Shown: positions 121-18,041, numbered from the stretch's first letter. The stretch is DNA of 32,000 nucleotides from Aliivibrio fischeri ES114 (GCF_000011805.1 NC_006841.2); one strand, 5' to 3'. A program made the numbers and translations. The notes: generated by a model not told the origin, from the letters alone.

Positions 121-1011
121 ATGAAGTATCTTTTTGAACAAATTTTAAAAAAATATAGAGAGAAGAGCGGCGTTACTCAAGAGATTATGGTTGACTTATT
201 GAGTCACAATTCTTCGAAGTTAAAAAAATTAGATAACGTAACATTTAGTCGCTGGGAAAGAGGGATCACTATTCCTCCGTTCAAAAAACAAATTGAGATA
301 TATCAGTTATTAGGTGTCGATCCTATAGATGAAATCATTGATTCAAATATAGAATTACCAAAAGTGGATAATGAGAATTATTTCGCTATTGATTACTATA
401 CCTATGGTAATAGTGATTTTGTTACGCATGTATTAAATCGAAATACGTTATCCGGTTTAGATTCTGTTCTTGAAGAAATGGAATTAATAATTGATAGTGA
501 TTATTATTTTAAGCAGTTAATAAAAGCCACTGGAAAAAATAGTATAAAAAAATCAATAGAGTCATTAATGACAAAACTAAATGCTGAGATTATTGTTTGT
601 AAGTATAAATCTCGATTAATTGCACATTCGATTACGCTTTATGTATCATCAGATTTTTTAAAAGATTTAATGTGTAATGAAATAGATTATACAAAAATAA
701 AAAATTACGCATCAAATAACCCATTAATAATATCATTCTATGCATCAACTAATGATAGCCTTAAATATATACTAGGCCGAATTTTGACAAATTTTTTAGA
801 TATACCAAATATAGATTCAAAATTGTATTTTATTTCAGGTGAAAAAAATATACATAAGTTATTTGTTAAATTAAATTCTAAAATTAAATTTAATGAATTT
901 ATCGATGATAAAAACTATAAGTTATCTGAAGTAACTAAGTTAAATATTAATCACTCAAAAGATGCATTACATTTTCTTGTTGATTTTAGAAGAATGGAAT
1001 ATGAAAAGTAA
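121..1011 (+). CDS. XRE-type helix-turn-helix regulator with an uncharacterised C-terminal domain of about 220 aa
   Basis: ORF 109..1011 begins at TTG; the first ATG is at 121. The N-terminus (KKYREKSGVTQEIMVDLL...FSRWERG) looks like a Cro/C1-type HTH. I do not recognise the C-terminal part. The stop overlaps the next gene's ATG (ATGAAAAGTAA, 1001..1011). Confidence 0.55.
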   Translation: MKYLFEQILKKYREKSGVTQEIMVDLLSHNSSKLKKLDNVTFSRWERGITIPPFKKQIEIYQLLGVDPIDEIIDSNIELPKVDNENYFAIDYYTYGNSDFVTHVLNRNTLSGLDSVLEEMELIIDSDYYFKQLIKATGKNSIKKSIESLMTKLNAEIIVCKYKSRLIAHSITLYVSSDFLKDLMCNEIDYTKIKNYASNNPLIISFYASTNDSLKYILGRILTNFLDIPNIDSKLYFISGEKNIHKLFVKLNSKIKFNEFIDDKNYKLSEVTKLNINHSKDALHFLVDFRRMEYEK

Positions 1012-2149
1012 AATAAATATAATATTAGTAGATGATATTGATTTTTCAAGGAAAGTAGTTTCATTTATTATAAAGAAGAATTTTCATGATCAAGTAAATA
1101 TCATAGAAGCAAAAAGTTGTAATGATGTGGTAAATATTTTAAATAAAAAGAATATAATACACGGAATTATAACAGATATAATGATGCCTAATGGAGATGG
1201 CTTAGATCTAATAAAAGTATTATCTGAGAATAATTACCACATACCAGTAGCTATTGTTTCATCAGTAAAAGCGACTATTTTGGAAAAAGTAATGGACCTT
1301 GCTGAAGTCAGTGGGGTTACTATTGTTAATTCTTACAATAAACCCATTTCAGCTGAAGAAGTCATTTCTACCATTGATTTTTTTAATGTGAATAGAATTG
1401 AAGATCGAAAGATGTTGTTTGAAGATGTAAAGCAAAATGATCTTGTTGAATTATATTATCAACCAATCGTTAATTTCGGCTCTCATCGAATTGATGGTGT
1501 TCAGGTTTCTCCTCATTGGAAAAATCAAAAGGCAAGTGCTGTTGCCGAAAGTGTGTTTCTACCAGACATTAATGATATGAAAAATACTGCTGGGTTTATG
1601 AATTTGATGTTCACCCTGCTTGAGCGTGATATCAAGAGTAAGTTTTCTGATTATCGTCATACCTTTCGTATAAATGTGAAGGATATTTTAATATGCGATG
1701 ATGATTTTATTAATCATGTTTTTGATAAAATTGAAAAGGAAACGAAGGATAAGATCATTGTGGTTGTTGAGTTTTCAGAAGATGTTGTGTTACTTGATAA
1801 ATTAACAGAAAATCTGGAAAAATTACTCTCAGATGGAGTTCGCATATCAATTGAATTGGTTGACAATGATATGCAGTACAAACTATTAGAACAAGGAATT
1901 GCTCTTTCTAATATTTGTTTTGAATATAAGAAAAATGTATTTGATGATATCGAGAGGTTTAAAGAACTGCATGGTAAAGATATTCCTATCATTATAGGTA
2001 ACATTCAAAAAGTAAATCAGCAACAAGCATCATTAGATTATGGCTTTGAATGTTTACAAGGTGATTTCATCACGTCGGAAATGAAAAACGATAAATTAGT
2101 TAAATGGATTAACGCTTATGAATCAGAAACTGAAAACCTTCAATGTTAA
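1001..2149 (+). CDS. Response regulator: canonical receiver domain fused to a degenerate EAL domain
   Basis: Numbering from the ATG at 1001. Receiver residues are LVDD (D11/D12), IITDIMMPNGDG (D59), AIVSS and YNKP (K114). The EAL fold starts at ELYYQPIV, but the EALxR motif reads QVSPH, DDFG reads ELVDND and EGVE reads GNIQ; QG is retained. Confidence 0.75.
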   Translation: MKSKINIILVDDIDFSRKVVSFIIKKNFHDQVNIIEAKSCNDVVNILNKKNIIHGIITDIMMPNGDGLDLIKVLSENNYHIPVAIVSSVKATILEKVMDLAEVSGVTIVNSYNKPISAEEVISTIDFFNVNRIEDRKMLFEDVKQNDLVELYYQPIVNFGSHRIDGVQVSPHWKNQKASAVAESVFLPDINDMKNTAGFMNLMFTLLERDIKSKFSDYRHTFRINVKDILICDDDFINHVFDKIEKETKDKIIVVVEFSEDVVLLDKLTENLEKLLSDGVRISIELVDNDMQYKLLEQGIALSNICFEYKKNVFDDIERFKELHGKDIPIIIGNIQKVNQQQASLDYGFECLQGDFITSEMKNDKLVKWINAYESETENLQC

Positions 2150-2438
2150 AGATTTTGAAAATGGAACTTCAACATCTCACTCCAGTAAAGAAGCATATTA
2201 TTTTAAAAGAATGATAGTTGAAGGAATAGAGAAAGAACTTAAGGAAATTGAAACTGATGGTGTCCAAGATACGATTCACGCGATAAAAGGCATATCGAGT
2301 TATGCTGGGTTAAATAGAATGCATGAAGTCTGTATGAGACTTGAACATTATCATCAAGTAATGAGATTCAAATTAGTTAAAGAGATATTGCATCGGGAGT
2401 ATCAAACCGTTGTAAATGATGAACAATTTTTAGCCTAA
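2118..2438 (+). CDS. Stand-alone histidine phosphotransfer (HPt) protein
   Basis: 106 aa, the size of a four-helix HPt domain. It has the HPt signature HAIKGISSYAGLNRMHEVCMRLE (HxxKG...G...E). Its start overlaps the REC-EAL gene by 32 nt. No clear SD sequence. Confidence 0.6.
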   Translation: MNQKLKTFNVKDFENGTSTSHSSKEAYYFKRMIVEGIEKELKEIETDGVQDTIHAIKGISSYAGLNRMHEVCMRLEHYHQVMRFKLVKEILHREYQTVVNDEQFLA

Positions 2439-2443
2439 AATAA

Positions 2444-2472
2444 AAAGCATAGTTTCGACTATGCTTTTTTTT
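2444..2472 (+). terminator. Rho-independent terminator after the HPt gene
   Basis: Perfect 10-bp stem AAAGCATAGT / ACTATGCTTT (2444..2453 / 2458..2467) with a TTCG loop, followed by a T-run to 2472. Confidence 0.75.
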
Positions 2473-2745
2473 GTTTCTAAAGAAAGACTAATTACATTTA
2501 AATATAGATCTTGATCCAGTAATTACAACACAAACATGATACTAACACTTTAGTGTTATATATTTATAATTATTATGCTTGATAATAGTGATTAGTAATA
2601 CACTTCTAATAATTTAGCATTTTGTTTTATTTTTATAATGTACATGCCTTGTTAGTTTTTTGTACCAACATTTATTATTTCGTCTCTTTCTTAATACACA
2701 AAATCATTTTTGATTATGTATGTTAATTTTAATAAGTCAGTATAT

Positions 2746-2760
2746 AAACTCAATGAGTTT
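2746..2760. promoter_or_regulatory. 15-bp perfect palindrome (candidate operator) just upstream of flp
   Basis: AAACTCA-A-TGAGTTT at 2746..2760, 28 nt upstream of the flp ATG and abutting a TATATA stretch (2741..2746). Confidence 0.3.
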
Positions 2761-2788
2761 AACATTAGAGATAATAAGGTAAAAAACA

Positions 2789-3007
2789 ATGTTAATTAAG
2801 TTTTTCGAATTTTCTAAGAACGCAATCCGAAGCTTTAAAAATGATGAGCGTGGCGTTACAGCTATTGAATATGCAATTATCGGTGTAGCTATTTCTGCTA
2901 TTATCTTATTGATGTTTAATGGAACACTTCAACAAGCCTTAATTGATGCAATTGGTACAATTTCAGCTAACATTACATCTGCCAATGACACTGGCGGTGG
3001 TGCTTAA
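2789..3007 (+). CDS. flp: Flp-family type IVb/c prepilin
   Basis: 72 aa. The Flp processing motif is ERG|VTAIEYAIIGVAIS (cleavage after G22), followed by a hydrophobic helix. AAGG RBS. It is the first gene of the tad cluster. Confidence 0.9.
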   Translation: MLIKFFEFSKNAIRSFKNDERGVTAIEYAIIGVAISAIILLMFNGTLQQALIDAIGTISANITSANDTGGGA

Positions 3008-3016
3008 AATAATTTA

Positions 3017-3451
3017 ATGAGTAATAATTCAATTATATGGTGGACATTTTTGTTCACCATATCGTGTATTATATGCTACCAAGATATAACTAGACGAACT
3101 ATATCAAATCGAATGTGCCTTATAGTTCTTATTATTTGCATTTTCCTTGTTATAAAAAACGGCAATTACTCTTCACTATATTATTCAGTAATAATATTTC
3201 TCGGAGGGTTTATACTTTTTATAAAAAAAGTTATAGCGGCAGGGGATGTGAAGCTTATATCTTCTTTCTTTATTGCAATTAACCAAAATTATCAGTTATT
3301 GACTTTCACTATTATTCTCTTGGCTGGTGGGGTTATATCTATAGTCCTATTGATTCATAAGATAATTAATAAAGAAAATACAACAATGACAGTTCCTTAT
3401 GGAGTTCCTATCTGTATTGGGTGCTTATTTGGTATTGCAGCATCACTTTAA
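3017..3451 (+). CDS. tadV: Flp prepilin peptidase (A24 family, no methyltransferase domain)
   Basis: 144-aa polytopic membrane protein with two Asp motifs (CYQDITRR and AAGDVKL). Its position directly after flp fits TadV/CpaA. Confidence 0.8.
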   Translation: MSNNSIIWWTFLFTISCIICYQDITRRTISNRMCLIVLIICIFLVIKNGNYSSLYYSVIIFLGGFILFIKKVIAAGDVKLISSFFIAINQNYQLLTFTIILLAGGVISIVLLIHKIINKENTTMTVPYGVPICIGCLFGIAASL

Positions 3452-3459
3452 GGTAATTT

Positions 3460-4245
3460 ATGAAAGCTAAAATAATCGTTGTGTTAGCAATGATTACTAT
3501 TTTGTTTGGGCTATATGGTCTAGCAGGTAGTTTATCTATGTTTGCTCCTCAAAATATAATAAAACCAAAAGAAGAAAATAAAATAAAAGTTTGGCAATTA
3601 AAAGAAAATGTAAACGCTAGAGATGAAATTAATCGACGCTTAGTCTCTCTTGTTCTTCTTCCTGAATCAGAGGCTAATAAACTGAGTTTTTCAGAAGACG
3701 TGCCAATTAACTGGAATAGAGGAACGATTTATAGACACGATCTTAAAAAGGGTGATTACATTTCAATGGAGGATTTTATCACCCCAGAAGAAGATAACTA
3801 TATTGAATATGTAATTGCACCAAATCGAGTTCCATTCCCATTACCTATTGATTCACCCGATATTATTGGAGGTGTAATCGGTAATGGTAGTTTTGTTGAT
3901 GTATTAGCTCTTACCAAAAGTGATGAAAACCGTAATTCAAATCGCGCAACGAAAAAAACACTATCGATTACGCCAATTTTTACAAGTATTAAAGTATTGC
4001 AAGTAAAACGAACCGTTATTCCTGAGACTCGTATAGAGCCAGCGAAAGAAGGCATAGTACTTATTCTTGAACTTACTCGTAGTCAAGCTGTTGAACTTAT
4101 CGTTGCAAAAGAAGCAGCAAAAATTGAAGTTCATAAATCAATTGGTAATTACAGTATCGAAGATTTAAAAGCAAATGCTGGTGACGTACTAGATGATTTT
4201 AGAGCGGTGACAGAATATCGCGCAAATAAAGTTACTATTAAATAG
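3460..4245 (+). CDS. rcpC: Flp pilus assembly protein RcpC/CpaB
   Basis: 261 aa with an N-terminal membrane anchor. Size and position immediately upstream of the secretin fit RcpC/CpaB. The call rests mainly on synteny. Confidence 0.7.
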   Translation: MKAKIIVVLAMITILFGLYGLAGSLSMFAPQNIIKPKEENKIKVWQLKENVNARDEINRRLVSLVLLPESEANKLSFSEDVPINWNRGTIYRHDLKKGDYISMEDFITPEEDNYIEYVIAPNRVPFPLPIDSPDIIGGVIGNGSFVDVLALTKSDENRNSNRATKKTLSITPIFTSIKVLQVKRTVIPETRIEPAKEGIVLILELTRSQAVELIVAKEAAKIEVHKSIGNYSIEDLKANAGDVLDDFRAVTEYRANKVTIK

Positions 4246-4255
4246 AGTAAATAAA

Positions 4256-5578
4256 ATGTGGAATAATTATTATCGAGCACTGTTGGTATTAGTTTTATTA
4301 CCTATATCATTTGTTAGTTTAGCGGGCAATATTATTAATATGTCAGAAGGTGATTCGCAAGTCATCTTAGCCAATAAGGACGTTGGTTCTGTATTTGTAT
4401 CTGATCCAAAAATCGCAGATTACCAAGTAATAGAAAAGAAAAAAGTTATTGTTTATGGGAAAAAAATAGGGCAAAGCTCTGTGATGGTTTTTGATAGAAA
4501 TGGCCATACCCTTGCAAATAAAAAGCTCATCGTAAATAAAAGTCTTGATTCTATAAAACAGTATATATCAGTTAAATACCCAGATGTTGATGTTGACGTT
4601 TTTAATATAGGTGAGCAAGTTGTACTCAGTGGAACGGTTTCAACCGAACAAGAGAAAGATGAAATAAACAATATTGTTGGGCAGCTGCTTGATAAAGATG
4701 ATGAAAAATTCACTTTTGAGCAAGACATGGAAGACCAAGATTATGAAATTCAGTTCATGGAAAGAACGGATTACAAAGGGATTGTAAATAATATCGAGGT
4801 AGCTACAACAAAACAAGTGAATGTAAAAATCTCAATTGCTGAAGTATCACAGTCATTCTTACAAGATATTGGTATTCAATATGGTACAGATGCGGCAGGT
4901 GTATTTATTCAACCACTTACTCACTTTAGTTCATCAGACATTATGTCCGTTATTACTGCTATTGGTAGCGATACGGTAGGGCAAATATTAGCAGAGCCAA
5001 ACCTATCGGTAGTTTCTGGAGAAAGTGCAAGCTTTTTAGTTGGTGGTGAATTGCCGGTTGTAACAACCGTAAATAACAGCACCAATGTGATGTACAAAGA
5101 ATATGGTGTGAGACTCGAGTTAATGGCCAAGGTTAAGAAAGATGACAAGATCACGCTTTCACTGGTTCCTGAAGTTAGTTCATTAGATATCCAATATGAA
5201 AATGATTCATATGATTTACCAGCTCTAAAAACTCGTCGTGCACGTACAACCGTTGAACTTGGCGATGGGCAAAGTTTTGTTTTAGGTGGATTATTGAGCT
5301 CTGAAGATAAAGAAAGCCTTCAAAAAATTCCTTTCATTGGAGATATCCCAATTTTAGGTGCTTTATTTAGAGGTTCATCGACTAAGAGAAATAAAACTGA
5401 GTTACTTATTGTAGCAACGGTAAATTTAGTTAAGCCAATTCATTCTTCGCAAATACAACTGCCAATGATGAGAAAGACAACCACATTAAATCGCTTTTTT
5501 GCATTAGAAGATTCATATGTAACAGCCGGTGATAAATGGGCTAAAGAGTTATTAGCTATTGGAGGATTTAAAAAATGA
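4256..5578 (+). CDS. rcpA: Tad outer-membrane secretin RcpA/CpaC
   Basis: 440 aa with a signal peptide. The C-terminal secretin signature is LPALKTRRARTTVELGDGQSFVLGGLL...IPFIGDIPILGALFR...ELLIVATVNLVKP. Confidence 0.9.
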   Translation: MWNNYYRALLVLVLLPISFVSLAGNIINMSEGDSQVILANKDVGSVFVSDPKIADYQVIEKKKVIVYGKKIGQSSVMVFDRNGHTLANKKLIVNKSLDSIKQYISVKYPDVDVDVFNIGEQVVLSGTVSTEQEKDEINNIVGQLLDKDDEKFTFEQDMEDQDYEIQFMERTDYKGIVNNIEVATTKQVNVKISIAEVSQSFLQDIGIQYGTDAAGVFIQPLTHFSSSDIMSVITAIGSDTVGQILAEPNLSVVSGESASFLVGGELPVVTTVNNSTNVMYKEYGVRLELMAKVKKDDKITLSLVPEVSSLDIQYENDSYDLPALKTRRARTTVELGDGQSFVLGGLLSSEDKESLQKIPFIGDIPILGALFRGSSTKRNKTELLIVATVNLVKPIHSSQIQLPMMRKTTTLNRFFALEDSYVTAGDKWAKELLAIGGFKK

Positions 5579-6111
5579 TCAATTGGAAAGGAATGTTATT
5601 TCTCCCATTAGTATTAATGACTGGTTGTGTTGAAAAAGTAAATGAACGTTTTGGCCCGGAAATAGATGTGTTTCCTGTAACGTATTCAGTATCTTTATCT
5701 AACACTCGTGAGTCAAAAATGTCGCTATCTACTTTTATCAGCGATCATAAAAAAGAACTTATTAACTATGGCGCAAATGTTCAGTGGGTGAGCCAATCAG
5801 GAAATCGTTGGGCGAATGAAATAAAAAAACAATTAATTAAAGAAGGCGTAAATAAAGATTTAATTATTATTTCTCAGGGTGAAAAAGGTGATGTGTATTT
5901 CGATATTAAATTTTCTATCGTTGTGCATAAAACACAAGTATCTAGCTGCCAATATGCTGAACTTGGGGCTATTAACACAGTAGCAACGGGGTGTTTTATT
6001 GAAAATGCGCGTTGGTCATCAATGGTTAATCCACAGAAAATGTTAATAACACCATCAGTAGATCAAGAGCATAAAGAAGCTGAAGCAACAGCACCTGGAA
6101 AGGAGGAATAA
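5575..6111 (+). CDS. Pilus-associated lipoprotein (CpaD/RcpB position)
   Basis: 178 aa with lipobox LMTG|C (Cys18). ATGA overlap with the rcpA stop. It lies between the secretin and tadZ, as CpaD/RcpB-type lipoproteins do. Confidence 0.55.
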   Translation: MINWKGMLFLPLVLMTGCVEKVNERFGPEIDVFPVTYSVSLSNTRESKMSLSTFISDHKKELINYGANVQWVSQSGNRWANEIKKQLIKEGVNKDLIIISQGEKGDVYFDIKFSIVVHKTQVSSCQYAELGAINTVATGCFIENARWSSMVNPQKMLITPSVDQEHKEAEATAPGKEE

Positions 6112-6112
6112 T

Positions 6113-7330
6113 ATGTTTGATTTATCAAACTCAATGAATCTGCCTGTGAATAAAAAGCAAAACTTAGAACTTGTTCTTTTTCACCAAACAGATGAATACC
6201 GACAGTTAATAGAAGAAGTTTTCCGTTTTGAAGGGGTATCAGAGCCTCTTGTACTAGATAATACCGACGAAGTCGTTGCACAGCACGCTAGAAAGTACCC
6301 AAATCATATCATTATGATTGAACTTAATAATAGCCATCATGTAGTGAATGATATTGAGCGTATTAGCCATCTTTTACCTAATAATGCGCCAGTCATCGTG
6401 TTAGGAAAAGAGAATTCAATATCTGTTATCCGTGCATTAAAAGACATGGGCTATTACTATTTATTTTGTCCTGCTACTAAGACTGAACTCTTTGATTTTG
6501 TAAGTGAAATCAATGAGAAAAACATGAAAAAAGAGTTAGGTAGTACGACAAGAAAAGCGAAGAAAATTGCTGTTCTAGGCGCTAAAGGTGGAGTTGGAAC
6601 TTCGTTTATTGCAGCAGAGCTAAGTAAAGAATTATCTGGTAGTCGTAATAGTTCGTGTGTTGTTGTTGATCATAATATTCGAGGCGGTAACTTAGATATT
6701 ATGCTTGGCATGAAACACTTTAAAAGACGAAAGCTAACCCAAGGTATGCTTCTTTCTAATTTGGATGTTGATTACGCTACCAATATGGTAACTAAGTTGA
6801 ATGATATGCTTTCATTACTCTCAATTGAATCTGACAATTTTTCAATTGAAGAAATGAAAGAATATATCAGTGTATTGACGTCACAACTTGCGCTTCAAGC
6901 TAATTTTATTATTGAAGATCTTTCTGGTTCGGCAAGCGAGAAACTCAGTTATCTAACTAAATCAGCTGATGTTGATGCTGTCGTTCTTGTTGCGGATCAA
7001 ACGGTATCGAGTTTACGAGAAGCTGCTTTAGTTGTTAATACAATTAAAGAAAAGAACCTTCCAATCCGCGTAATTGTGGTTGTTAATCATACTAAACCTG
7101 AAAAGTACTCAACAATAGAGTCACAAGAAGTAGAAAAATATATTAATAAGAATATAGATGTGATTTGTCCATTTGAACCTAAGTTAGGTACGTATTTATT
7201 ACATAGAGACAGTATTTATACAAAAGATATAGAAATTGCTCAAAGTTTAAATCGTATTACTGCTTTATTGCTTGGTGAAGAAGAAATCAAGAAATCAAGC
7301 TTGCTTAAGCGTTTAATTAAAAGGTTATAG
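6113..7330 (+). CDS. tadZ: TadZ/CpaE ParA/MinD-like pilus localisation ATPase
   Basis: 405 aa with a GGAGGA RBS. It has an N-terminal receiver-like region without an acidic pocket, then a deviant Walker A, AVLGAKGGVGTSF (KGGxGTS, lacking the GK[ST] lysine), as reported for TadZ. Confidence 0.8.
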   Translation: MFDLSNSMNLPVNKKQNLELVLFHQTDEYRQLIEEVFRFEGVSEPLVLDNTDEVVAQHARKYPNHIIMIELNNSHHVVNDIERISHLLPNNAPVIVLGKENSISVIRALKDMGYYYLFCPATKTELFDFVSEINEKNMKKELGSTTRKAKKIAVLGAKGGVGTSFIAAELSKELSGSRNSSCVVVDHNIRGGNLDIMLGMKHFKRRKLTQGMLLSNLDVDYATNMVTKLNDMLSLLSIESDNFSIEEMKEYISVLTSQLALQANFIIEDLSGSASEKLSYLTKSADVDAVVLVADQTVSSLREAALVVNTIKEKNLPIRVIVVVNHTKPEKYSTIESQEVEKYINKNIDVICPFEPKLGTYLLHRDSIYTKDIEIAQSLNRITALLLGEEEIKKSSLLKRLIKRL

Positions 7331-7332
7331 AT

Positions 7333-8619
7333 ATGGACCAAAATAAATCAATTTATATCGAAATTCGAGCTCAAATTTTTGATGTATTAGATGCAGAAAC
7401 GGTTAATTCATTAAGTAAAGAGCAGCTACATAATCAACTGAGTAATGCGATAGACCTGTTAATTGAACGCCATGAATGGCCAGTAAGTACAATTGTGCGA
7501 GCTGAATACGTAACAAGTCTAGTAAATGAATTACAAGGTCTTGGGCCTCTTCAGGTATTAATGGAAGATGAATCTATTAGTGACATTATGATTAATGGGT
7601 ACGACAAGATTTTTATCGAACGAGCAGGTTTAGTTGAAGTCGCACCGGTTAGCTTCATTGATGAAGAACAACTACTACATATAGCTAAGCGTGTTGCTTC
7701 TCAAGTTGGACGACGTGTTGATGATTCATCACCAACTTGTGATGCGCGGTTAGCTGACGGTAGTCGTGTAAATATTGTTATTCCACCAATTGCTATTGAT
7801 GGAACCTCTATGTCTATACGTAAATTTAAAAAAGACAGCATAGGCTTAGAGAAATTAACTGAATTTGGTGCGTTGAGTCAAGAAATGGCTCAGTTATTAA
7901 TGATTGCATCTCGTTGTCGTTTGAATATTTTAATATCAGGTGGTACGGGTTCTGGTAAGACAACAATGCTGAATGCGCTATCGCAATATATTTCAGAAAA
8001 AGAGCGTATCGTAACGATAGAAGATGCTGCTGAACTGAAATTACTTCAACCGCATGTAGTGAGATTAGAAACTCGAAATTCAGGGATTGAAGGTAACGGG
8101 GCAATTACTCAGCAAGACCTTGTTATTAATGCCTTACGTATGCGTCCTGACCGAATAATTGTTGGTGAGTGTCGTGGCGGTGAAGCTTTTCAAATGCTTC
8201 AAGCAATGAATACTGGCCATGATGGTTCAATGTCAACGCTCCATGCGAATACACCTCGTGATGCAATGGCTCGTGTAGAGGCAATGGTGATGATGGCAAG
8301 TAACAACTTACCACTAGAAGCGATTCGTCGAACCATAGTTAGTGCTGTTGATATCGTAATTCAAATCAGCCGCTTACATGATGGAAGTCGTAAAGTCATG
8401 AGCATCACTGAGGTGATTGGTCTTGAAGGTAATAACGTTGTATTGGAAGAACTCTACAAATTTGAATCAACAGGCCAGAACACTCCAGAAGGAAAAATTA
8501 TCGGTAATTATTCTACCACTGGTTTAATGCAACGATCGGTATTAGTTGAAAAAGCTCGATTCTTTGGGTTAGAGCAGCAACTGAAAGCGGTATTTAATAA
8601 GTTTGATGAGGCGATATGA
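7333..8619 (+). CDS. tadA: Tad secretion ATPase TadA/CpaF
   Basis: 428 aa. Walker A is GGTGSGKTT, Walker B/Asp box is DRIIVGECRGGEA, and the His box is GHDGSMSTLHAN. Confidence 0.95.
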   Translation: MDQNKSIYIEIRAQIFDVLDAETVNSLSKEQLHNQLSNAIDLLIERHEWPVSTIVRAEYVTSLVNELQGLGPLQVLMEDESISDIMINGYDKIFIERAGLVEVAPVSFIDEEQLLHIAKRVASQVGRRVDDSSPTCDARLADGSRVNIVIPPIAIDGTSMSIRKFKKDSIGLEKLTEFGALSQEMAQLLMIASRCRLNILISGGTGSGKTTMLNALSQYISEKERIVTIEDAAELKLLQPHVVRLETRNSGIEGNGAITQQDLVINALRMRPDRIIVGECRGGEAFQMLQAMNTGHDGSMSTLHANTPRDAMARVEAMVMMASNNLPLEAIRRTIVSAVDIVIQISRLHDGSRKVMSITEVIGLEGNNVVLEELYKFESTGQNTPEGKIIGNYSTTGLMQRSVLVEKARFFGLEQQLKAVFNKFDEAI

Positions 8620-10420: not shown

Positions 10421-11153
10421 AAAAATAGTAATCGGTTTACTTTTTGTTACGTTAGTTGGGTGCTCATCTAGTCCTGATACTGAAGAGACAAAAGAGAAAA
10501 TTCTTATTAAAACAAATAATTATTCAGATTTGATTATTTTTTATAAGAATCAGTTAAAAGTATCTGAAGACCCTTATACTCGTGAAAAACTGGCGCAAGC
10601 CTATTTAGATTCTGGAGATCCAGATTCAGCTCTTTTTGCAATCCAATATCTTAATGAGGATGACGATTCTCGAAGTATTTCTTCATTTTTAATTGAAGCA
10701 AATGCGCAGTTAGAATGCGGAATGTTAGAACCGGCTTTAGATACAGTAAATCGTGTATATAAATTAAATGAGGATAACCCTGAGATTGAAAATTTATTAG
10801 GTGTTATTTATGCGAGTAAGCGTGATTTAGATAAATCTCGTCATTATTTTAATTTAGCAAGAAAGCATTTATACAGTGATATTACGATAAAAAATAATTT
10901 GGCTATTCTCAATATTATTGAAGGCAAATATGACCAAGCAGTTAAATTATTATTACCAATATATATGAGTAATAAAAATGATGCCTTAGTACAAGCTAAT
11001 TTAATGTTAGCAATGGCGAAAGCTGGTGATTTAGAGTTTATGGAAAAAGTATTGTCGCCGCAATTCAGTAAGCAAGAAATTGAAAGACGCTACTCAATTC
11101 TAAAAAATACTGAATCACATCGTGATGATACAAACCTGTTTGGAGCGGATTAA
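10410..11153 (+). CDS. tadD: TPR lipoprotein TadD
   Basis: GTG start overlapping the tadC end. Lipobox LVG|C (Cys18). Repeated TPR-like helices (e.g. AQAYLDSGDPDSA, LLGVIYASKRDLDKSRHYF). Confidence 0.8.
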   Translation: MYIKKIVIGLLFVTLVGCSSSPDTEETKEKILIKTNNYSDLIIFYKNQLKVSEDPYTREKLAQAYLDSGDPDSALFAIQYLNEDDDSRSISSFLIEANAQLECGMLEPALDTVNRVYKLNEDNPEIENLLGVIYASKRDLDKSRHYFNLARKHLYSDITIKNNLAILNIIEGKYDQAVKLLLPIYMSNKNDALVQANLMLAMAKAGDLEFMEKVLSPQFSKQEIERRYSILKNTESHRDDTNLFGAD

Positions 11154-11157
11154 CATC

Positions 11158-11646
11158 ATGAAAATTAAAAAGAACAGGGGTGTAGCCAGTATTGAGTTTG
11201 CAATGGGATTTATGGTTTTTTGGTTGATTTGTATGGCTTGGGTTGAAATGAGTTATATGTCATATGTATCAGCAATAAGTGATCTCATTATTTCTGAATC
11301 AGCTCGAGAATCCAAAACAAAAAACTCGGATTATCTGCAGGCGTTTACTGATGCTGTAAATGATAATCAATCGATCTGGGGTAATGTGGTTGATCCAAGT
11401 AAATTTACGATGTCGATACAATACTTAAAGAGTGTAAACGAACTAGGTTCATTAGTTGAGCCATGTACAGTTCCTGATAGTGAGAGTACTGCTGAATGTG
11501 GTTCATCAGATAATAGTTCCATTGCTGTTTATCGAATTGATTATCGTTTTTCACCCATTTTTACTTATTTTATGGGATTTGAAGGAATTTTCAGCCGAGA
11601 AGATATTGTGATTCAGGAGTACGAACGTGATGCCTTTAAAGTTTAA
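11158..11646 (+). CDS. tadE: TadE-like pseudopilin
   Basis: The ATG at 11158 is preferred over the track start at 11122, which lies inside tadD. The N-terminus NRG|VASIEFAMG plus a hydrophobic helix matches the TadE/Flp-type processing motif. Confidence 0.7.
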   Translation: MKIKKNRGVASIEFAMGFMVFWLICMAWVEMSYMSYVSAISDLIISESARESKTKNSDYLQAFTDAVNDNQSIWGNVVDPSKFTMSIQYLKSVNELGSLVEPCTVPDSESTAECGSSDNSSIAVYRIDYRFSPIFTYFMGFEGIFSREDIVIQEYERDAFKV

Positions 11647-12169
11647 ACAACGTGGAAACTTTACTGTTGAGTTTGCAATGGTAGGGCTAGGTCTTAGTTT
11701 GATTTTTATATTTAGCGCTGATGTAATAATAAAACTATCAATAAAAGGTAAGTTAGATCGGCTCTCTTATTCTCTTGTTAATGTTTTAAAAGAGCGAACA
11801 CAGTTATATGACGAAGATTATTTAATAACGAACAGTGAAAGTAGTGAAATATTTAATATTGCAAAGAATTCACTGCGCCGCACATTAGGAAGTTATGAAG
11901 ATGAACGTTTTGGTGCCGTTATTGAAGAGTTAACTTTTCGTGATATTGGTGCACCGAATACACCGGTTACGTATAACTATGGTTCTTTTTCCTGTCCTTT
12001 ATCTAAAAGGATCGGTGAGCTTGACTATTTATCAGTGGTTACCACATGGGAAAGGCAAGCAACGTTATATCGTGTCACCTTATGTTATCAAACAGACAAT
12101 ATGTTTGGTTCAGTCGTTGGTGAGTCATACACAGATGTCATTTCATCGTCAGTGATGATTGGGAGGTAG
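11627..12169 (+). CDS. tadF: TadF-like pseudopilin
   Basis: GTG at 11627 or ATG at 11630, after an AGGAG RBS (11615..11619). The N-terminus is QRG|NFTVEFAMVG plus a hydrophobic helix. It overlaps the tadE end. Confidence 0.65.
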   Translation: MMPLKFKQRGNFTVEFAMVGLGLSLIFIFSADVIIKLSIKGKLDRLSYSLVNVLKERTQLYDEDYLITNSESSEIFNIAKNSLRRTLGSYEDERFGAVIEELTFRDIGAPNTPVTYNYGSFSCPLSKRIGELDYLSVVTTWERQATLYRVTLCYQTDNMFGSVVGESYTDVISSSVMIGR

Positions 12170-12170
12170 T

Positions 12171-13442
12171 ATGAGAAATTTAAGAAAGCATCAGCAAGGT
12201 CACGCTGCCATTTTATTTGCAATGATGATACCTGCGTTGTTTGGAATATTTGCTTTAGCTAGTGATGGTGCTAGAGCTATTCAAACTAAAGCAAGAATAG
12301 AAGACGCAAGTGAGGTGGCAGCTCTTGCTATTTCAGCTCACAATGATCCTGATCAACCGGATAATGGTTCTTATACTCCAAGTACTAGGAACAGACAAAT
12401 AGTCGTGGATTATGTAAATGCTTACATTAGTGATATTGATGCTGTTACAGATATTAAAGTGGCAAAAAGACGTTGTGAATTAATTTCTGGCTGCGTAGCT
12501 GGTTTATATAAAGGGGATGCGCGTTATTTAGAGCATGAGATTGATGTAACAACAAGACAAAACTCATGGTTTCCCGGTAATGAAGCGATTGAAGGAATGG
12601 GGGAGACGTTTTCAACACGTGGCAAGTCCTTGGCTCGTAAATATCAAAGTGAGGCCGTTGATGTGATGTTCGCTGCCGATTTTTCCGGTTCAATGCTAGA
12701 TACTTGGAGTGGCAGCTCTAACCCTAAATATATTGATCTAATTGAGATCATTAGAAATATTTCTGTTGAATTGCAGAAATTTAATGATTTACCAGAGAAC
12801 CGCGATAAAAGCACGATGGGAATATCAGCATTTAGTACCTTTACTAATTCATTCACATCGGATACCGGTATTCAGTGTTCTCTATCTCAAGGTGTTAATA
12901 GTAAAAATAAACCAGGGAACTGGTTTCGACCTGTCAAACCTGCAAATACGGTTGCTAACATTTGGAATGAGAAAACTGAAGATTATTGTAAATCGGGTGC
13001 TTATGCCGGTTTTCATGATGTCAATTTAACTTCAAATTTTAATTCTTTAAATGGTCAAGTAGGTAGCTTTTATGCAGGTGGAGGTACTGCCTCTTATCAA
13101 GCGCTAATTCGTGGAGCACAGCTACTCGATAGAGGACGTAATTCTCGACGTTTGTTGATCGTATTATCGGATGGTATGGATAACGATAGAAACCTAGCTA
13201 ATGGATTAGTTAGTAATGGCATGTGCCGTGAAATTCAAGCTGGTTTAGAGTCAGATAGAACACCTGATGGTAGACCGATTGCAGCAAAAATGGCCGTTAT
13301 TGGGTTTGACTATGATCCATTCGCCAACAAAGCGTTAAAGGATTGTGTTGGAGAAAAGAATGTATACAAAGCAGAAGATGCGGATGAAGTCGAAGACATA
13401 ATTCTAGAGTTAATAAACGAAGAAGTTGGCCATTTAAAATAA
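12171..13442 (+). CDS. tadG: TadG-like protein with a von Willebrand A domain
   Basis: ATG at 12171 after a GGGAGG RBS (12161..12166). The N-terminus is QQGHAAILFAMMIPALFG (TadE/G-like). MIDAS-like motifs are VMFAADFSGSM and LIVLSDG. Confidence 0.75.
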   Translation: MRNLRKHQQGHAAILFAMMIPALFGIFALASDGARAIQTKARIEDASEVAALAISAHNDPDQPDNGSYTPSTRNRQIVVDYVNAYISDIDAVTDIKVAKRRCELISGCVAGLYKGDARYLEHEIDVTTRQNSWFPGNEAIEGMGETFSTRGKSLARKYQSEAVDVMFAADFSGSMLDTWSGSSNPKYIDLIEIIRNISVELQKFNDLPENRDKSTMGISAFSTFTNSFTSDTGIQCSLSQGVNSKNKPGNWFRPVKPANTVANIWNEKTEDYCKSGAYAGFHDVNLTSNFNSLNGQVGSFYAGGGTASYQALIRGAQLLDRGRNSRRLLIVLSDGMDNDRNLANGLVSNGMCREIQAGLESDRTPDGRPIAAKMAVIGFDYDPFANKALKDCVGEKNVYKAEDADEVEDIILELINEEVGHLK

Positions 13443-13481: not shown

Positions 13482-14243
13482 ATGTATAAAATTTTAATTA
13501 TAGTTGCTGCTGTTTTAGGGTTATCTTTTAATGCTAATGCTAATGCTAATGCTAATGCTAATGCTAATGCTAATGCTAATGCTAATGCTAATGCTAATGC
13601 TAATGCTAATGCTAATGCTAATGCTAATGCTAATGCTAATGCTAATGCTAATGAGAAAGTGGAAGATATCAAAAAATCAGAACAATCAGTTTTAATTTAT
13701 TGTGGTTCTGTAAACAAAGAGTATCAAAAAGAAGTGAATGTGGCTGAAGGAAAAAGACTTTCGCTTAACGAAGGTGGCTTTTATCAAATTCAGCATCTTG
13801 AACCAATTGAACCTAAAGGTGCATTTGTTAATCGTGAGCTTGATAGCATTGATGTTGAATCAACGTGTTCCGAATTTTTAATCAGTAATACATCAGATGC
13901 ATTAGTAAATAAAAATGCAGTATTAGCTCGTGTGTATTTTAATTTTGATAAATCAACATTAACTAAGCGCTCAGAGTATGTGCTTGATAAGCTTTACTCC
14001 AAAATGGGCGAGAAAGATATTAAATTGAAAGTTGAAGGTCATACTGATTCAAAAGGCAGCAGCACCTATAATTACGATCTGGGGCTAAAAAGAGCGAATA
14101 TTGTATATCAATACTTAGTCCAACAAGGAGCTGAACCTAATCAGTTTTCTGTGGTTACTAAAGGTGAACGAGAGCCTATTAAAACAAATAAAACTGCAAA
14201 TGGACGAGAAAAGAACCGACGAGTAGAAATTGAGAAAATTTAA
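13482..14243 (+). CDS. Secreted OmpA_C-like peptidoglycan-binding protein with an (Asn-Ala)x20 tract
   Basis: Signal peptide MYKILIIVAAVLGLSFNA with no lipobox Cys, then the NA repeat. The C-terminal OmpA/MotB-type motif is FNFDKSTL...VEGHTDSKGSSTYNYDLGLKRA...NRRVEIE. Confidence 0.85.
   Translation: MYKILIIVAAVLGLSFNANANANANANANANANANANANANANANANANANANANANEKVEDIKKSEQSVLIYCGSVNKEYQKEVNVAEGKRLSLNEGGFYQIQHLEPIEPKGAFVNRELDSIDVESTCSEFLISNTSDALVNKNAVLARVYFNFDKSTLTKRSEYVLDKLYSKMGEKDIKLKVEGHTDSKGSSTYNYDLGLKRANIVYQYLVQQGAEPNQFSVVTKGEREPIKTNKTANGREKNRRVEIEKI
13530..13652 (+). repeat. Perfect hexanucleotide tandem repeat (AATGCT)x20 plus AAT
   Basis: Counted directly: 120 nt of uninterrupted AATGCT from 13530 to 13649, then AAT. 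It is in frame with the CDS (codons 17-57). Confidence 0.95.
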
Positions 14244-14268: not shown

Positions 14269-14342
14269 CAGAATAGAGTAATAATGAAATTTTAGAATGT
14301 CATATTCTATAGTTTTATTGTTGCTCTATTCTGTTTTGTTTT
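14269..14342 (+). terminator. Large compound rho-independent terminator ending the tad operon
   Basis: Outer stem CAGAATAGAG (14269..14278) / CTCTATTCTG (14324..14333), extendable with G-U pairs. Inner hairpin TAGAAT-GTCAT-ATTCTA. Followed by TTTTGTTTT (14334..14342). Confidence 0.55.
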
Positions 14343-14999: not shown

Positions 15000-15000
15000 A

Positions 15001-15414
15001 ATGGTTAATAATTACATGATGTTAACCATTTTTTTGGTAACTGGTTTATTCTTAATAACAAAAGAGGTAAAAGAAAATTATGTTGGAACTTTAACCGAAC
15101 TATCTGGAATTAAGCACCATTATACAGTTACCATTTTTGATTATAAAAAAATGTTAGTAGATGAAACTATTGATGGAATAAATGGATTAACAAGAACTAA
15201 TGTTTGTTTATTTACATTAAATCATATAGATGATAATAGATATATTTTATTAACAAAAGAATCATTATCAAACGAATCGAAAAGAGAAAGATGTATTGGT
15301 TTTTTTAGTAACCTTTCAATGCTGTCTTTTTATAGTGATGATGATGGTTTATTCGTTGAAAATAATAATGCATATCTATTTTTAAAACGAAAAAAAGAAA
15401 ATAGGCTCAAGTGA
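15001..15414 (+). CDS. Small bitopic membrane/periplasmic protein in the ToxS position
   Basis: The ATG at 15001 lies 1 nt after the upstream stop; the track start at 14908 is a TTG inside the previous gene. N-terminal TM MLTIFLVTGLFLI, then about 110 periplasmic residues. I see no recognisable motif; the call rests on arrangement only. Confidence 0.4.
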   Translation: MVNNYMMLTIFLVTGLFLITKEVKENYVGTLTELSGIKHHYTVTIFDYKKMLVDETIDGINGLTRTNVCLFTLNHIDDNRYILLTKESLSNESKRERCIGFFSNLSMLSFYSDDDGLFVENNNAYLFLKRKKENRLK

Positions 15415-15420
15415 GCCTAT
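15389..15420 (-). terminator. Terminator hairpin for the minus-strand kinase, spanning both convergent stop codons
   Basis: ATAGGCTC-AAGT-GAGCCTAT (15401..15420), preceded on the plus strand by an A-run (15389..15400), which is a T-run on the minus strand. Confidence 0.5.
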
Positions 15421-17627
15421 TTAAAAATAGTGGTTATTATTGAGTCTAACTCTTTGTTTTCTATTGGTTTTGCAAGATACCCATCACAATGTTTTTTAAT
15501 TTCAAGCTCTTCATGCACCATACCATGGGCTGTAATTGCTATAACTGGAATATGTTTGGTATTATCTGATGATTTGATACGTTTTGTTAATTCAATTCCA
15601 TCCATTATTGGCATTTTTATATCTGTAAAAATAATGTCTGGTAACTTAATTATTGACTCTAGTTTATTTAGCATATCTTGTCCGTTGATAGCTTCGATAA
15701 TTTCAAACCCGTAATCTTCTACCTTTTTCTTTAAAACTTCCCTGTTGAATTCTATATCATCAATAATTGCGATGGTTTTTGAATCTTTAAATTTAGTAAC
15801 ATTTCTCCGCATTGTATGATATTGGTCGATTAATTTAGATTTAATGATTTCAACATCCTTTAATTTAATACAAATAGATGTTCCTATTCCAACTTTACTT
15901 TTAATTGAGATATTACCGTTCATATCTTCTATGATTTTCTTAGTAATAAACAAACCAAGGCCTGTTCCATATTCTCTGTCTTTATCATAGAGTTGTTCAA
16001 ATGGATTAAATATACGTTCTAAATCTTTTTCTTCAATTCCTCGGCCATTATCGGTAAATACCATGATAAGATCGGTTGTTGTTGGTGTGGAATTTTCATA
16101 TTTTACATCAATATCTATTTTTCCACCATCTTCTGTAAACTTGATGGCATTACTTAAGATATTCATTATTATCTTATTTATATATTTTTTATCTATGTTT
16201 AAATGGTGAAATTCCGTTTTTTTGTATTGAATTTGGATATTCTTTGACTTTGATTGAAACTGAGTAATATCAATAATGTCTGAAATGATATGATCGATAG
16301 AGTTTGGTTTATTGTGGGCAATGATTTTGTCGGCTTCAATTTTACTTAAATCGAGAATGTCATTAACCATCTCTAATAAGCCTTGACCCGCTTTATTTAA
16401 TGTTTCTAATGTTTTCTTTTTCTCACTGTTTTCTTCTTTTTCGATAAGATATAAACTTAGACCTAATATCGCATTTAAAGGCGTTCTTAATTCATGCGAT
16501 ATATTAGCTATAAATTTTGATTTATTGATATTAGCTTTTTCTGCTTGCTCTTTGGATTGTTGAAGAAGTTTCGTTCTTTCAGTTATCTTACTTTCTAAGT
16601 TATTGACTAAAATCGAGATATCTTGGGCCATCAAAGAGACATTTCTCGCTAATGTTCCTAATTCGTCTTTTCTATATAGTAAAGGATTATTGTATTCATA
16701 ATTACCTCTTTGAATTTCTTTGATCCATTCACTAAACAGAATTAATGGACCTTTTACATAATAAGTGATTAAAATTGATGTTATAAGAGTGAATAGGGTA
16801 ATAAATATTATTGTGTTAAATAATTTATTACTAAAAAGAATGTAGTTATTATCAATTTTATTCGTTAGATCTTGATCGTAATTGACCGATAGTTTTTTCT
16901 TTATAAGAGTAACTATGCTCCATGGAAGGTCTTTTACGGGTTGAATTGCAATAATATGGTCTTCACCATTTATTTTTATTTCTGAATCCCATGTCTCTTT
17001 CTTTTCGATTTTTCTCATTGCTATCATTAAGTCATAAGAAATTTCGTCTAGCTTTGTAATGTCCTTCAGTTTTTGTTTATATAGTGATAAGTACTGTTTA
17101 CTATCTGAATTATCAGTCACAACATTCATATTTTTGTCTATAATTATTGTAACGAAGTCAGCGTAATAGTCTTTATTTTTTAATCTATTAAGTAGTTTAG
17201 TTACGTCTGTTTGAAATATTAAATATGTACTTTCATTGATTTTATATTGTTGAGTAACGAGTGTTTCATCGGTAGTGTAACTGATCTTAGAATCACTGAT
17301 GATTACGCTAGTAGAGTACTTTTTTAGTTCTTGCACAGCAGTGTTTAAGATATCTCTTGATTTAATTGATCGAATGTTCTTGATTAACTCAACATATCTT
17401 TTGGAAATGTTTTTTATTTCAATCATTTTTCGATTTAATGAGTTGCTTACATCAAATGAATAGTGCAGTGCACTTTGATGTAAGTACTTATTTTCTGCAT
17501 TTGTAGCAATTGTTTTTACTTCTTCTTGATTTGAAGTGATTATTTTATACGACGTAAACGAAATGAAGACGGAATAGGCAATAATGGTACCAGCAAGAGC
17601 AACAAAGAATTTGTTTTTCAAAAGCAT
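15417..17627 (-). CDS. Hybrid sensor histidine kinase (Cache-like periplasmic domain, HAMP, HisKA, HATPase, REC; no HPt)
   Basis: 736 aa with two TMs flanking a periplasmic region of about 250 aa (IAIQPVKDLPWSIVTLI is Cache-like). H-box ISHELRTPLNAILG; N box NILSNAIKFT; G boxes DNGRGI and GTGLGL. The C-terminal receiver has IAIIDDIEF...DIIFTDIKMPIMDG...AITAHG...AKP. The protein ends right after the receiver. Confidence 0.9.
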   Translation of the reverse strand: MLLKNKFFVALAGTIIAYSVFISFTSYKIITSNQEEVKTIATNAENKYLHQSALHYSFDVSNSLNRKMIEIKNISKRYVELIKNIRSIKSRDILNTAVQELKKYSTSVIISDSKISYTTDETLVTQQYKINESTYLIFQTDVTKLLNRLKNKDYYADFVTIIIDKNMNVVTDNSDSKQYLSLYKQKLKDITKLDEISYDLMIAMRKIEKKETWDSEIKINGEDHIIAIQPVKDLPWSIVTLIKKKLSVNYDQDLTNKIDNNYILFSNKLFNTIIFITLFTLITSILITYYVKGPLILFSEWIKEIQRGNYEYNNPLLYRKDELGTLARNVSLMAQDISILVNNLESKITERTKLLQQSKEQAEKANINKSKFIANISHELRTPLNAILGLSLYLIEKEENSEKKKTLETLNKAGQGLLEMVNDILDLSKIEADKIIAHNKPNSIDHIISDIIDITQFQSKSKNIQIQYKKTEFHHLNIDKKYINKIIMNILSNAIKFTEDGGKIDIDVKYENSTPTTTDLIMVFTDNGRGIEEKDLERIFNPFEQLYDKDREYGTGLGLFITKKIIEDMNGNISIKSKVGIGTSICIKLKDVEIIKSKLIDQYHTMRRNVTKFKDSKTIAIIDDIEFNREVLKKKVEDYGFEIIEAINGQDMLNKLESIIKLPDIIFTDIKMPIMDGIELTKRIKSSDNTKHIPVIAITAHGMVHEELEIKKHCDGYLAKPIENKELDSIITTIFK

Positions 17628-17645
17628 TAGTTGTCCTTTCTTTTC

Positions 17646-18041
17646 TTAATTATGGTATAGGGTAATATTTTTCTTTACGGTATTTTTTAACGTTTTTATT
17701 GAAAAAGGCTTTTCTAATATAGTTTGCTTGGGAAAATTATATTGTTTCATTTCTAATAGTTTTTCAAACGAACCCATTAGAATGACATTTTGAGCAGCAG
17801 TGAAAGGATTAAACGATTTCTCACTTAAAAGTTCCATTTTATCTTCAATTGTGTATTTCTCACTGTCTAAATCGTAAACAACAAGATCAGGTACAGGTAT
17901 CTTATGCATGTCTTTTTCTGTGAGTTTATGAAAATTTGTGACTGTCATTGTCTTCGTATCATGTACATCATTTAGTTCACTCAGTACTTTATTTGCTACA
18001 TCTTTGATAAGAAAGTAATTACTTACTATTAATATGTTCAT
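17646..18041 (-). CDS. Single-domain receiver-like protein with a degenerate acidic pocket
   Basis: 131 aa, 18 nt upstream of the kinase gene on the same strand. REC-like layout: LVVYDLD, VILMGS, LEKPF. The N-terminal DD pair is replaced by SN (ILIVSNYF). Confidence 0.55.
   Translation of the reverse strand: MNILIVSNYFLIKDVANKVLSELNDVHDTKTMTVTNFHKLTEKDMHKIPVPDLVVYDLDSEKYTIEDKMELLSEKSFNPFTAAQNVILMGSFEKLLEMKQYNFPKQTILEKPFSIKTLKNTVKKNITLYHN

Follow-up and report, generated by a model that had tools for sequence, protein, structure and literature searches.

Two signalling flanks around the tad2 pilus genes

We analysed a stretch of 32,000 nucleotides from chromosome II of Aliivibrio fischeri ES114 (GCF_000011805.1 NC_006841.2), hereafter the window, which carries the tad2 locus. 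We found that the Tad pilus genes of this locus lie between two flanks of signalling genes, one encoding a helix-turn-helix (HTH) protein, a response regulator and a histidine phosphotransfer (HPt) protein and the other a hybrid sensor kinase, and a Pfam scan confirmed the domain content and coordinates of the flank parts. An earlier note on this DNA had read the two flanks as the complementary halves of one His-Asp-His-Asp phosphorelay. Between them, on the plus strand, the flp pilin gene (2789..3007; translation MLIKFFEFSKN...GVTAIEYAIIG, with orthologues that match Pfam Flp_Fap) is followed by tadV-rcpC-rcpA-rcpB-tadZ-tadA-tadB-tadC-tadD-tadE-tadF-tadG (3017..13442; Pfam Peptidase_A24, RcpC, Secretin, T2SSE, two T2SSF domains, TPR and Tad), the tadF2 gene of the tad2 locus being VF_A0228 (PMC5466423). 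Terminator prediction divides the bracket into three transcription units, namely HTH-REC(-EAL)-HPt, flp-tad, and a 131-aa gene (p131) with the kinase. The first unit is predicted to end at an intrinsic terminator on the plus strand (2442..2469), a 12-bp stem and then a T run, 4 nt past the HPt stop codon, and another terminator is predicted after the kinase stop codon, at 15422-15399 on the kinase strand. Both flanks are AT-rich, with a GC content of 26-29%.

Upstream of the pilus genes, we recovered the overlapping tricistron that had been described there, of an HTH protein, a receiver joined to an EAL domain and a 106-aa HPt protein, with gene overlaps of 11 nt and 32 nt. The first gene (121..1011, plus strand) encodes a protein of 296 aa with an XRE-type N-terminal HTH, which gives a weak match to Pfam HTH_19 (E 2e-3), and a C-terminal alpha/beta domain of no assigned function that is weakly GNAT-like. 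Its family comprises eight clusters, every named one of which is from Aliivibrio, and its N-terminal 80 aa are 79-86% identical across lineages versus 40-51% for the remainder. The C-terminal domain (window 400-1011) has no sequence-level match to PDB or Pfam, and the family profile found nothing in PDB; an AlphaFold2 (AF2) model with a pLDDT of 64 gave weak GNAT matches in a Foldseek search against PDB (E about 7e-4, TM-score 0.5, root-mean-square deviation 7 Å). A fusion of an XRE-type HTH to a GNAT-like domain would be an unusual regulator. The HTH protein is the candidate DNA-binding output of the circuit that we discuss below.

The second gene, VF_A0216 (1001..2149, plus strand; Pfam Response_reg and partial EAL), encodes the proposed terminal phospho-acceptor, D2. 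The published VF_A0216 cloning primer corresponds exactly to window 1001-1040 and the reverse primer to the end of the open reading frame (ORF), and with the start at 1001 the phospho-acceptor is D59. The receiver residues DD11-12, D59, S87 and K114 are invariant in seven orthologues. The earlier note had described a canonical receiver fused to EAL, of which the receiver part stands, with D59 in place, and the EAL part does not stand as an active domain, being degenerate and missing in half of the lineages. The third gene (2118..2438, plus strand; Pfam Hpt, E 5.6e-8) encodes the orphan HPt protein of 106 aa, the proposed H2, in which the putative phosphorylated histidine is His54 in TIHAIKGISSYAGLNR. 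It carries HAIKGISSYAG, of which TIH[AT]IKGIS is invariant and the His motif is kept in eight orthologues, and in the family profile His54 aligns with the HPt histidine of BarA in 3iqt. The HPt family is very narrow, with only one other 50%-identity cluster among 1.8 billion representatives, and the identical protein occurs in many A. fischeri assemblies.

At the other end, convergent with tad, the minus strand encodes the hybrid sensor kinase of 736 aa, the proposed H1-D1 (15417..17627; Pfam HAMP, HisKA, HATPase_c and Response_reg). Its parts follow in the order transmembrane (TM) segment, periplasmic region of about 240 aa, TM segment, HAMP, HisKA (369-432), HATPase_c (479-590) and Response_reg (619-731), and the protein stops five residues past the receiver with no Hpt match in Pfam, in agreement with the description of a kinase with an H-box, an ATPase and a C-terminal receiver that lacks an HPt. 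The H-box reads SHELRTPLN and the receiver aspartate lies within FTDIKMP, both being invariant in six lineages. A Cache domain had also been proposed for the sensor region, and this call fell below the Pfam gathering score (dCache_1, 20.1 bits versus a cut-off of 45, the match covering no more than the C-terminal third of the model); the position of the sensor region is clear, in the periplasm between two TM segments. Good scores for the kinase core were also obtained with the LuxQ, TorS, BarA and ArcB models. Full-length orthologues were found in Aliivibrio only (98, 63, 63, 53 and 53% identity), the next match being 31% identical over the kinase core alone. The other hybrid kinase of the window, the rscS-like gene, does carry its own HPt (RscS, 20932-23715; Pfam Hpt).

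Directly upstream of the kinase, in the same operon, p131 (17646..18041, minus strand) encodes a possibly degenerate receiver. It has no Pfam or NCBIfam match even at E 10, and against a REC profile it reached an hhalign probability of 34%, with PDLVVYDLD over PDIIFTDIKMP and EKPF over AKPI, so that D57 and K111 are kept and SN replaces the acidic pair DD. Its single-sequence AF2 model (pLDDT 47) gave no meaningful fold matches, and the protein is 75% identical in salmonicida/logei-like lineages. The parts list had been called complete and non-redundant, which is wrong: the kinase shares its operon with p131, possibly receiver-like, and the bracket also contains a gene for a ToxR-like regulator.

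Conservation, promoters and expression of the flanks

At every Aliivibrio tad2 locus that we examined, the two sides carry genes for the HTH protein, the receiver, the HPt protein and the kinase, in at least seven divergent lineages and at 44-63% protein identity, so that the linkage of the flanks to tad in relatives, a check that had been proposed for the phosphorelay, held throughout. The entire bracket is found on one contig in the A. salmonicida-labelled loci (L014/L015), in A. wodanis (L016) and in a divergent locus labelled A. fischeri (L019; GCA_001730155.2), and in the EL58 and S4 strains the tricistron and the kinase are found as paired loci on the same contig (L003/L004 and L002/L005). 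The A. salmonicida-labelled loci have the HTH, REC-EAL and HPt genes upstream, a PAP2_3 gene in the slot between ompA, the last gene of the tad operon, and the kinase, and then the kinase and p131. L019 likewise has HTH, REC-EAL and HPt upstream and kinase and p131 downstream, with PAP2_3, the ToxR-like gene and its partner in the slot. In A. wodanis the upstream unit is HTH, a REC protein of 142 aa with no EAL, and HPt, in EL58 and S4 it is again a REC-only unit, and in all three the slot is empty and the kinase stands without p131. The conserved core of the bracket is thus HTH, REC, HPt and kinase, with EAL, p131, the ToxR-like pair and PAP2_3 dispensable. The H-box histidine, D1, His54 and D59, the last together with DD, S and K, do not vary in any orthologue, at overall identities of 44-65%. 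The kinase keeps its place next to the 3' end of tad throughout, despite the change of inner cargo (ToxR-like, PAP2_3 or nothing), and in L008-L010 LysR/Toluene_X replaces glpF as the outer neighbour; the p131-kinase pair therefore stays with tad and not with glp. Upon examining the nearest outgroup loci, in Photobacterium (TadA 85% identical) and P. damselae (78%), we observe that the tad gene order is retained and that the tricistron and the kinase are both missing.

The promoters of the bracket carry a further common feature. A k-mer search identified a 33-bp palindrome, GGCAT(TTT)-N23-(AAA)ATGCY, to which strand does not apply, common to the promoters of the HTH gene (P_HTH) and of flp (P_flp), and in the intergenic DNA between HPt and flp, which cannot be aligned across lineages, this is the one conserved block found by k-mers. 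The P_HTH copy (32..64; GGCATTTT-N17-AAATGCC) lies 57 nt upstream of the HTH ATG, its proximal arm directly adjoining TTGGGG-18-TATAAT, with the -10 at 89-94; a repeat search found this copy independently, with arms 31-38/58-65 that are 100% complementary. The P_flp copy (2616..2648; AGCATTTT-N-ACATGCC) lies 141 nt before the flp ATG and abuts the predicted -35/-10 elements TTGTTA-18-TATTAT (2649-2678). These two are the only exact RGCAY-N23-RTGCY matches in the window, where 0.20 are expected and 2 of 100 shuffles reached two. Across lineages, an exact P_HTH copy is found 58-60 nt before the HTH ATG in L001, L002, L003, L011-L014 and L016, and an exact flp-side copy about 175-180 nt upstream of the flp ATG in each of the nine Aliivibrio lineages; in L019 the flp copy is present as well, and the spacer of the P_HTH copy is 24 nt long. 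No copy was found in the outgroup loci of Photobacterium (L017/L018) and P. damselae (L020).

A third copy, with one mismatch, lies in front of the p131-kinase unit (18108..18140, 67 nt upstream of p131), abuts ATCAAT-18-TAGTAT, and recurs 66-67 nt before the ATG in L006-L010 and L014 (four lineages). This copy is weaker evidence, as about three one-mismatch matches are expected per window and these promoter regions are alignable anyway. In each of the three promoters an arm of the palindrome abuts a weak -35 with the -10 18 nt further on, a geometry that would suit activator-dependent promoters. The HTH protein is the best candidate for the factor that binds the palindrome, because it is the sole DNA-binding protein encoded in every locus and has a conserved N-terminal domain. 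A sigma-54 reading of the palindrome was discarded upon direct reading, since the left arm, although similar to TGGCAC, is followed by no GC element at the -12 spacing. No Rfam family was found in the whole window, and hence no cyclic di-GMP (c-di-GMP) riboswitch before flp, and PLSDB gave no match when searched for an annotated copy.

Two smaller elements were noted at the same promoters. At P_HTH a second small palindrome, TCTATAGA, occurs 12-15 nt upstream of the GGCAT arm in all lineages but L019 (window 9-18, TTCTATAGAA). At the p131-kinase promoter a conserved TATCAATA overlaps the -35 region (window 18092-18107, minus-strand ATGCTATCAATACAAA; also in L006-L010 and L014), which we take to resemble one half-site of the LuxR/HapR/LitR-type consensus and through which the LitR repression known from A. 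salmonicida could act.

Published expression data place the flanks together with the pilus genes. In A. salmonicida LFI1238, the tad operon VSAL_II0366-0378 is repressed by LitR and RpoQ at high cell density (PMC6420764). We mapped the VSAL genes by gene order and annotations, with the OmpA pseudogene 0379 and glpK 0385 matching L014 and L006, and took fold changes for the rpoQ mutant versus the wild type at low density from the supplementary tables of that study (PMC6420764). The tad genes rise 4.6-25x, and the genes mapped to the tricistron rise with them, namely VSAL_II0362 ("hypothetical"; HTH) 9.5x, VSAL_II0363 ("putative response regulator"; REC-EAL) 5.3x and VSAL_II0364 ("hypothetical"; HPt) 4.6x, as do VSAL_II0381 (kinase), 2.6x, and VSAL_II0382 ("hypothetical"; p131), 2.2x, with smaller rises at high density and in the litR mutant (PMC6420764). 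Both flanks rise with tad in A. salmonicida and are therefore in the same regulon as tad. Within our literature search, these genes were found only in a c-di-GMP survey and one proteome list, and the V. fischeri LitR chromatin immunoprecipitation and biofilm transcriptome papers do not mention them.

These results bear on one alternative, that the likeness to a phosphorelay is a coincidence of neighbourhood, with abundant two-component genes having settled at the borders of an accessory island and having no function in common with tad. Vibrios do encode dozens of kinases and response regulators, and the AT-rich flanks are fast-evolving accessory DNA, as such a scenario would have it. Against this, the linkage is kept across at least seven lineages down to about 45-55% protein identity despite the turnover of inner and outer genes, the promoters have a positionally conserved palindrome in common, and the flanks are co-regulated with tad, which leaves coincidence already disfavoured and, in our view, very improbable.

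A candidate relay and competing readings

The flanking parts probably make up one new pilus control circuit, specific to the tad2 island of Aliivibrio, because they are inherited with tad, have a promoter element in common and are co-regulated. We favour a reading in which the relay runs from the kinase through the HPt protein and VF_A0216 to the HTH protein and the palindrome promoters. In such a relay, a periplasmic signal would be sensed by the membrane hybrid kinase, which would autophosphorylate on the H-box histidine and pass the phosphoryl group to its own receiver aspartate, D1, from where it would move to His54 of the HPt protein and on to D59 of VF_A0216. Phosphorylated VF_A0216 would then most likely act on the translationally coupled HTH protein by protein-protein contact, and the HTH protein would bind GGCAT-N23-ATGCC at the weak -35 of flp, of the operon that encodes it and probably also of the p131-kinase unit. 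Pilus and signalling genes would be switched on together, giving positive feedback, and quorum-sensing repression by LitR/RpoQ would be laid on top of the circuit. The parts of this proposal differ in strength: the domains and key residues, the linkage to tad, the joint occurrence of the flanks, the common cis element and the co-regulation are shown, a single regulon is well supported, the specific phosphotransfer path is plausible, and every phosphotransfer step, the identity of the palindrome binder and the contact between receiver and HTH protein are what we infer. As a whole, we regard the favoured reading as having about an even chance of being right.

The output of the relay depends on what remains of the EAL domain. 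The Pfam EAL match in VF_A0216 spans only positions 5-153 of 236, and the catalytic and metal-binding residues (the EAL glutamate, DDFG(T/A)GYSS and the EGVE general base) are not present: in the alignment the EAL glutamate is replaced by Q (GVQVSPHW versus GAEVLARW in RocR), and by direct reading the DDFG motif is ELVDND and EGVE is GNIQ. The domain is missing in L002, L003, L012, L013 and L016, half of the lineages, and evolves very fast where present, with 25-30% identity versus 60-65% for REC. The protein has been classed as "predicted degenerate" and is expressed, its overexpression giving no motility or cellulose phenotype (PMC11575326), and it was detected in squid light-organ exudate (PMC3187790). 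Hydrolysis of c-di-GMP was accordingly ruled out as the output, the EAL domain being inactive and missing in half of the lineages, with no published phenotype. The degenerate state and the patchy occurrence of the EAL domain leave the bare receiver as the conserved terminal part, and according to Pfam neither VF_A0216 nor its REC-only orthologues have a DNA-binding domain.

What the EAL region retains by direct reading, the N, ExxE, K and QG motifs, allows for a different role, in which the module acts on the pilus post-translationally: the receiver with its degenerate EAL would contact TadA or TadZ as a c-di-GMP sensor or adaptor in the manner of FimX or LapD, and the HTH protein and the palindrome would form a separate transcriptional layer. 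The closest named relatives of VF_A0216 are in keeping with this, RocR (3sy8) being its best full-length solved match and PvrR its best NCBIfam match, albeit at 55 bits against a cut-off of 580 for RR_EAL_PvrR, which leaves it outside that family. So is the co-occurrence of the EAL domain with p131, as the two are either both present (fischeri, the salmonicida-labelled L014, and L019) or both absent (EL58, S4 and wodanis; L002-L005, L012, L013 and L016), a pattern that hints that both work together and that may also go back to one loss event. Against this, half of the lineages do without the EAL domain, it diverges much faster than its receiver, and overexpression of VF_A0216 changed no c-di-GMP-linked phenotype; we consider a post-translational role improbable. 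A further elaboration of the favoured relay would unite these features as a "split response regulator", in which a bare receiver, phosphorylated through a private orphan HPt, would by direct contact control a separate XRE-HTH/GNAT-like factor at a wide operator in three promoters, giving a self-amplifying switch, and in which, in the fischeri, salmonicida and sifiae lineages, the EAL domain and the p131 pseudo-receiver would be a co-inherited accessory pair providing another input such as c-di-GMP. This is a speculative version, and we think it unlikely to hold in full.

Several observations weigh against the favoured relay. The flanks are about 13 kb apart and are separate operons with their own terminators, the half-site spacing of the palindrome is about 25 bp centre to centre, which is not an integral number of helical turns, and the loci that lack p131 (EL58, S4 and wodanis) have no palindrome, at up to one mismatch, upstream of the kinase. 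The joint presence and absence of the flanks is probably one gain or loss event and so carries little statistical weight, the co-induction in A. salmonicida could be a regional de-repression of an AT-rich island, overexpressed VF_A0216 was silent in the published motility and cellulose assays, and our literature search returned no papers on the neighbouring locus tags. Moreover, L019 is a recombination mosaic. Relative to ES114, its kinase is 96% identical, TadA 78%, REC 62% and HPt 44%, the nucleotide identity of its kinase gene falls from 98% at the 5' end to 78% at the REC-coding 3' end, and its tad genes and tricistron are more divergent from ES114 than those of other Aliivibrio species. 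With a kinase near-identical to that of ES114 beside a very divergent HPt, the flanks can recombine apart and are not always co-inherited; two very different tad2 alleles appear to circulate, with a junction near the 3' end of the kinase gene.

Alternatively, the flanks would belong to one island and one regulon but would not be wired together. The kinase would then use a different HPt, such as LuxU or that of SypF, or signal to p131 alone, and the orphan HPt and VF_A0216 would be fed by other hybrid kinases. The separate operons with their own terminators would fit, as would the pairing in L019 of a fischeri-type kinase with a very divergent HPt, and p131 would be the kinase's own co-transcribed small partner. 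HPt domains of V. fischeri are promiscuous, with RscS and HahK using the SypF HPt in trans and LuxQ and AinR using LuxU, and cross-wiring is plausible for this reason. On the other side, the minimal loci (EL58, S4 and wodanis) lost p131, EAL, the ToxR-like pair and PAP2_3 and yet keep exactly the kinase, HPt, REC and HTH genes, and the kinase and HPt families share one narrow distribution and are jointly missing from the outgroups. In addition, D1 and D2 both begin helix alpha-1 with DDI[ED]F[NS]R[EK]V, and over 88 aa they are 40% identical, a value that none of the other hybrid kinases among the 122 compared reached and with no match from RscS; this likeness may lend weak further support to a relay between the two. 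We regard an unwired pair of flanks as rather doubtful and retain the relay from kinase to HTH protein as the favoured reading.

Related systems and other genes of the locus

Signalling genes beside tad are known from other bacteria. The PprAB two-component system is reported to adjoin the flp/tad genes of P. aeruginosa (Bernard et al. 2009, cited in PMC3767616; PMC3510237). In Pectobacterium the OmpR-type pair ECA0785/0786 lies beside flp/tad, deletion of the response regulator lowering flp, rcpA and tadA mRNA (PMC3767616). Both resemble the locus described here in the placement of signalling genes next to tad, and in both these control tad transcription. They consist, however, of just two proteins, the response regulator binding DNA itself and no HPt taking part, whereas here the parts of a four-step relay are split over both ends of the locus, the receiver has no DNA-binding domain, the HTH protein is separate, and there is no orthology to PprAB or to the Pectobacterium proteins.

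RocR and PvrR of P. aeruginosa (RocS1-RocR-RocA1 and PvrS-PvrR, cup fimbriae) receive phosphate from hybrid kinases by way of an HPt and regulate adhesive fimbriae, and VF_A0216 has the same REC and EAL architecture. Unlike VF_A0216, which has Q for the EAL glutamate and lacks DDFG and EGVE, these are active phosphodiesterases, and their HPt is within the kinase whereas here it is separate. The relays from LuxQ and LuxN through LuxU to LuxO, and from RscS and HahK through the SypF HPt to SypG, share with the arrangement predicted here a hybrid kinase with no usable HPt, a separate HPt and a receiver; these relays end in sigma-54 activators with DNA-binding domains, whereas here the receiver is bare or joined to a dead EAL and the HPt is a lineage-specific orphan. 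Relays in which the HPt stands alone, as LuxU and ShpA do, are classical. In the Caulobacter relay ShkA-ShpA-TacA a hybrid kinase is joined with a separate HPt protein and a response regulator, with ShkA controlled via a c-di-GMP-binding pseudo-receiver that recalls the accessory pair of p131 and degenerate EAL; the homology is only that of generic domains, TacA is a sigma-54 activator, and the genes are not known to be linked to the Caulobacter cpa/tad genes. None of the proteins described here reaches the family cut-off for the named systems compared. No compared system unites a hybrid kinase, a private orphan HPt, an output-less receiver, a separate HTH protein and a common wide palindrome in an arrangement that is split across a pilus operon.

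Regulation of Tad pili in vibrios is largely uncharted, and the two A. fischeri tad loci have barely been studied. The tad2 locus offers a compact and testable candidate circuit in a tractable organism, with four conserved signalling genes, a putative 33-bp operator at two promoters and a weaker third copy, and with an upstream quorum-sensing input that is known from LitR and RpoQ in A. salmonicida. It also suggests a likely role for VF_A0216, which had no phenotype in the systematic V. fischeri c-di-GMP survey, and the natural series of loci with and without EAL and with and without p131 could reveal what a phosphorelay gains from degenerate EAL domains and pseudo-receivers.

Between ompA and the kinase lies a variable slot, holding the ToxR-like gene and its partner in A. 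fischeri, PAP2_3 in the salmonicida-labelled loci and in the 63%-identity lineages L006-L010, both in L019 and nothing in EL58, S4 and wodanis. In the window, the ToxR-like membrane regulator (14364-14999, plus strand; winged helix and TM segment, Pfam Trans_reg_C) is followed by its small TM partner (15001-15414, plus strand). The pair occurs in the window and L019 only, with PAP2_3 or nothing elsewhere, and the ToxR-like gene was ruled out as a conserved regulator since it is found only in A. fischeri-type loci. A ToxR-like protein, PypB, is reported to activate the tad operon of Yersinia enterocolitica (Schilling et al. 2010, cited in PMC3767616); the ToxR-like gene of the window, which directly follows the tad operon and is no part of the conserved core, recalls it. 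A PAP2_3 gene is also found in Photobacterium (L017). Between ompA and the ToxR-like gene, an inverted repeat at 14269-14333 has 30-nt arms that are 83% complementary and contains TTCTATAG.

Further out, rscS lies between glpK and glpR in the window and is missing at that position in the other Aliivibrio loci examined (L004-L007), which fits the known horizontal acquisition of the gene by squid-colonising A. fischeri.

The last gene of the tad operon encodes an OmpA-family lipoprotein (13482..14243, plus strand; Pfam OmpA). In the A. salmonicida-labelled L014/L015 it is broken into two ORFs, one of 90 aa and the other of 121/107 aa (16125-16766), in agreement with the annotation of VSAL_II0379 as "OmpA family (pseudogene)" (PMC6420764). 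In the window the gene contains a perfect (TAATGC)x20.8 repeat at 13529-13653, detected with TRF, which codes for (Asn-Ala)n right after the signal peptide. The protein has 253 aa in the window versus 205-213 aa in other lineages, and the repeat is a candidate length-variable region.

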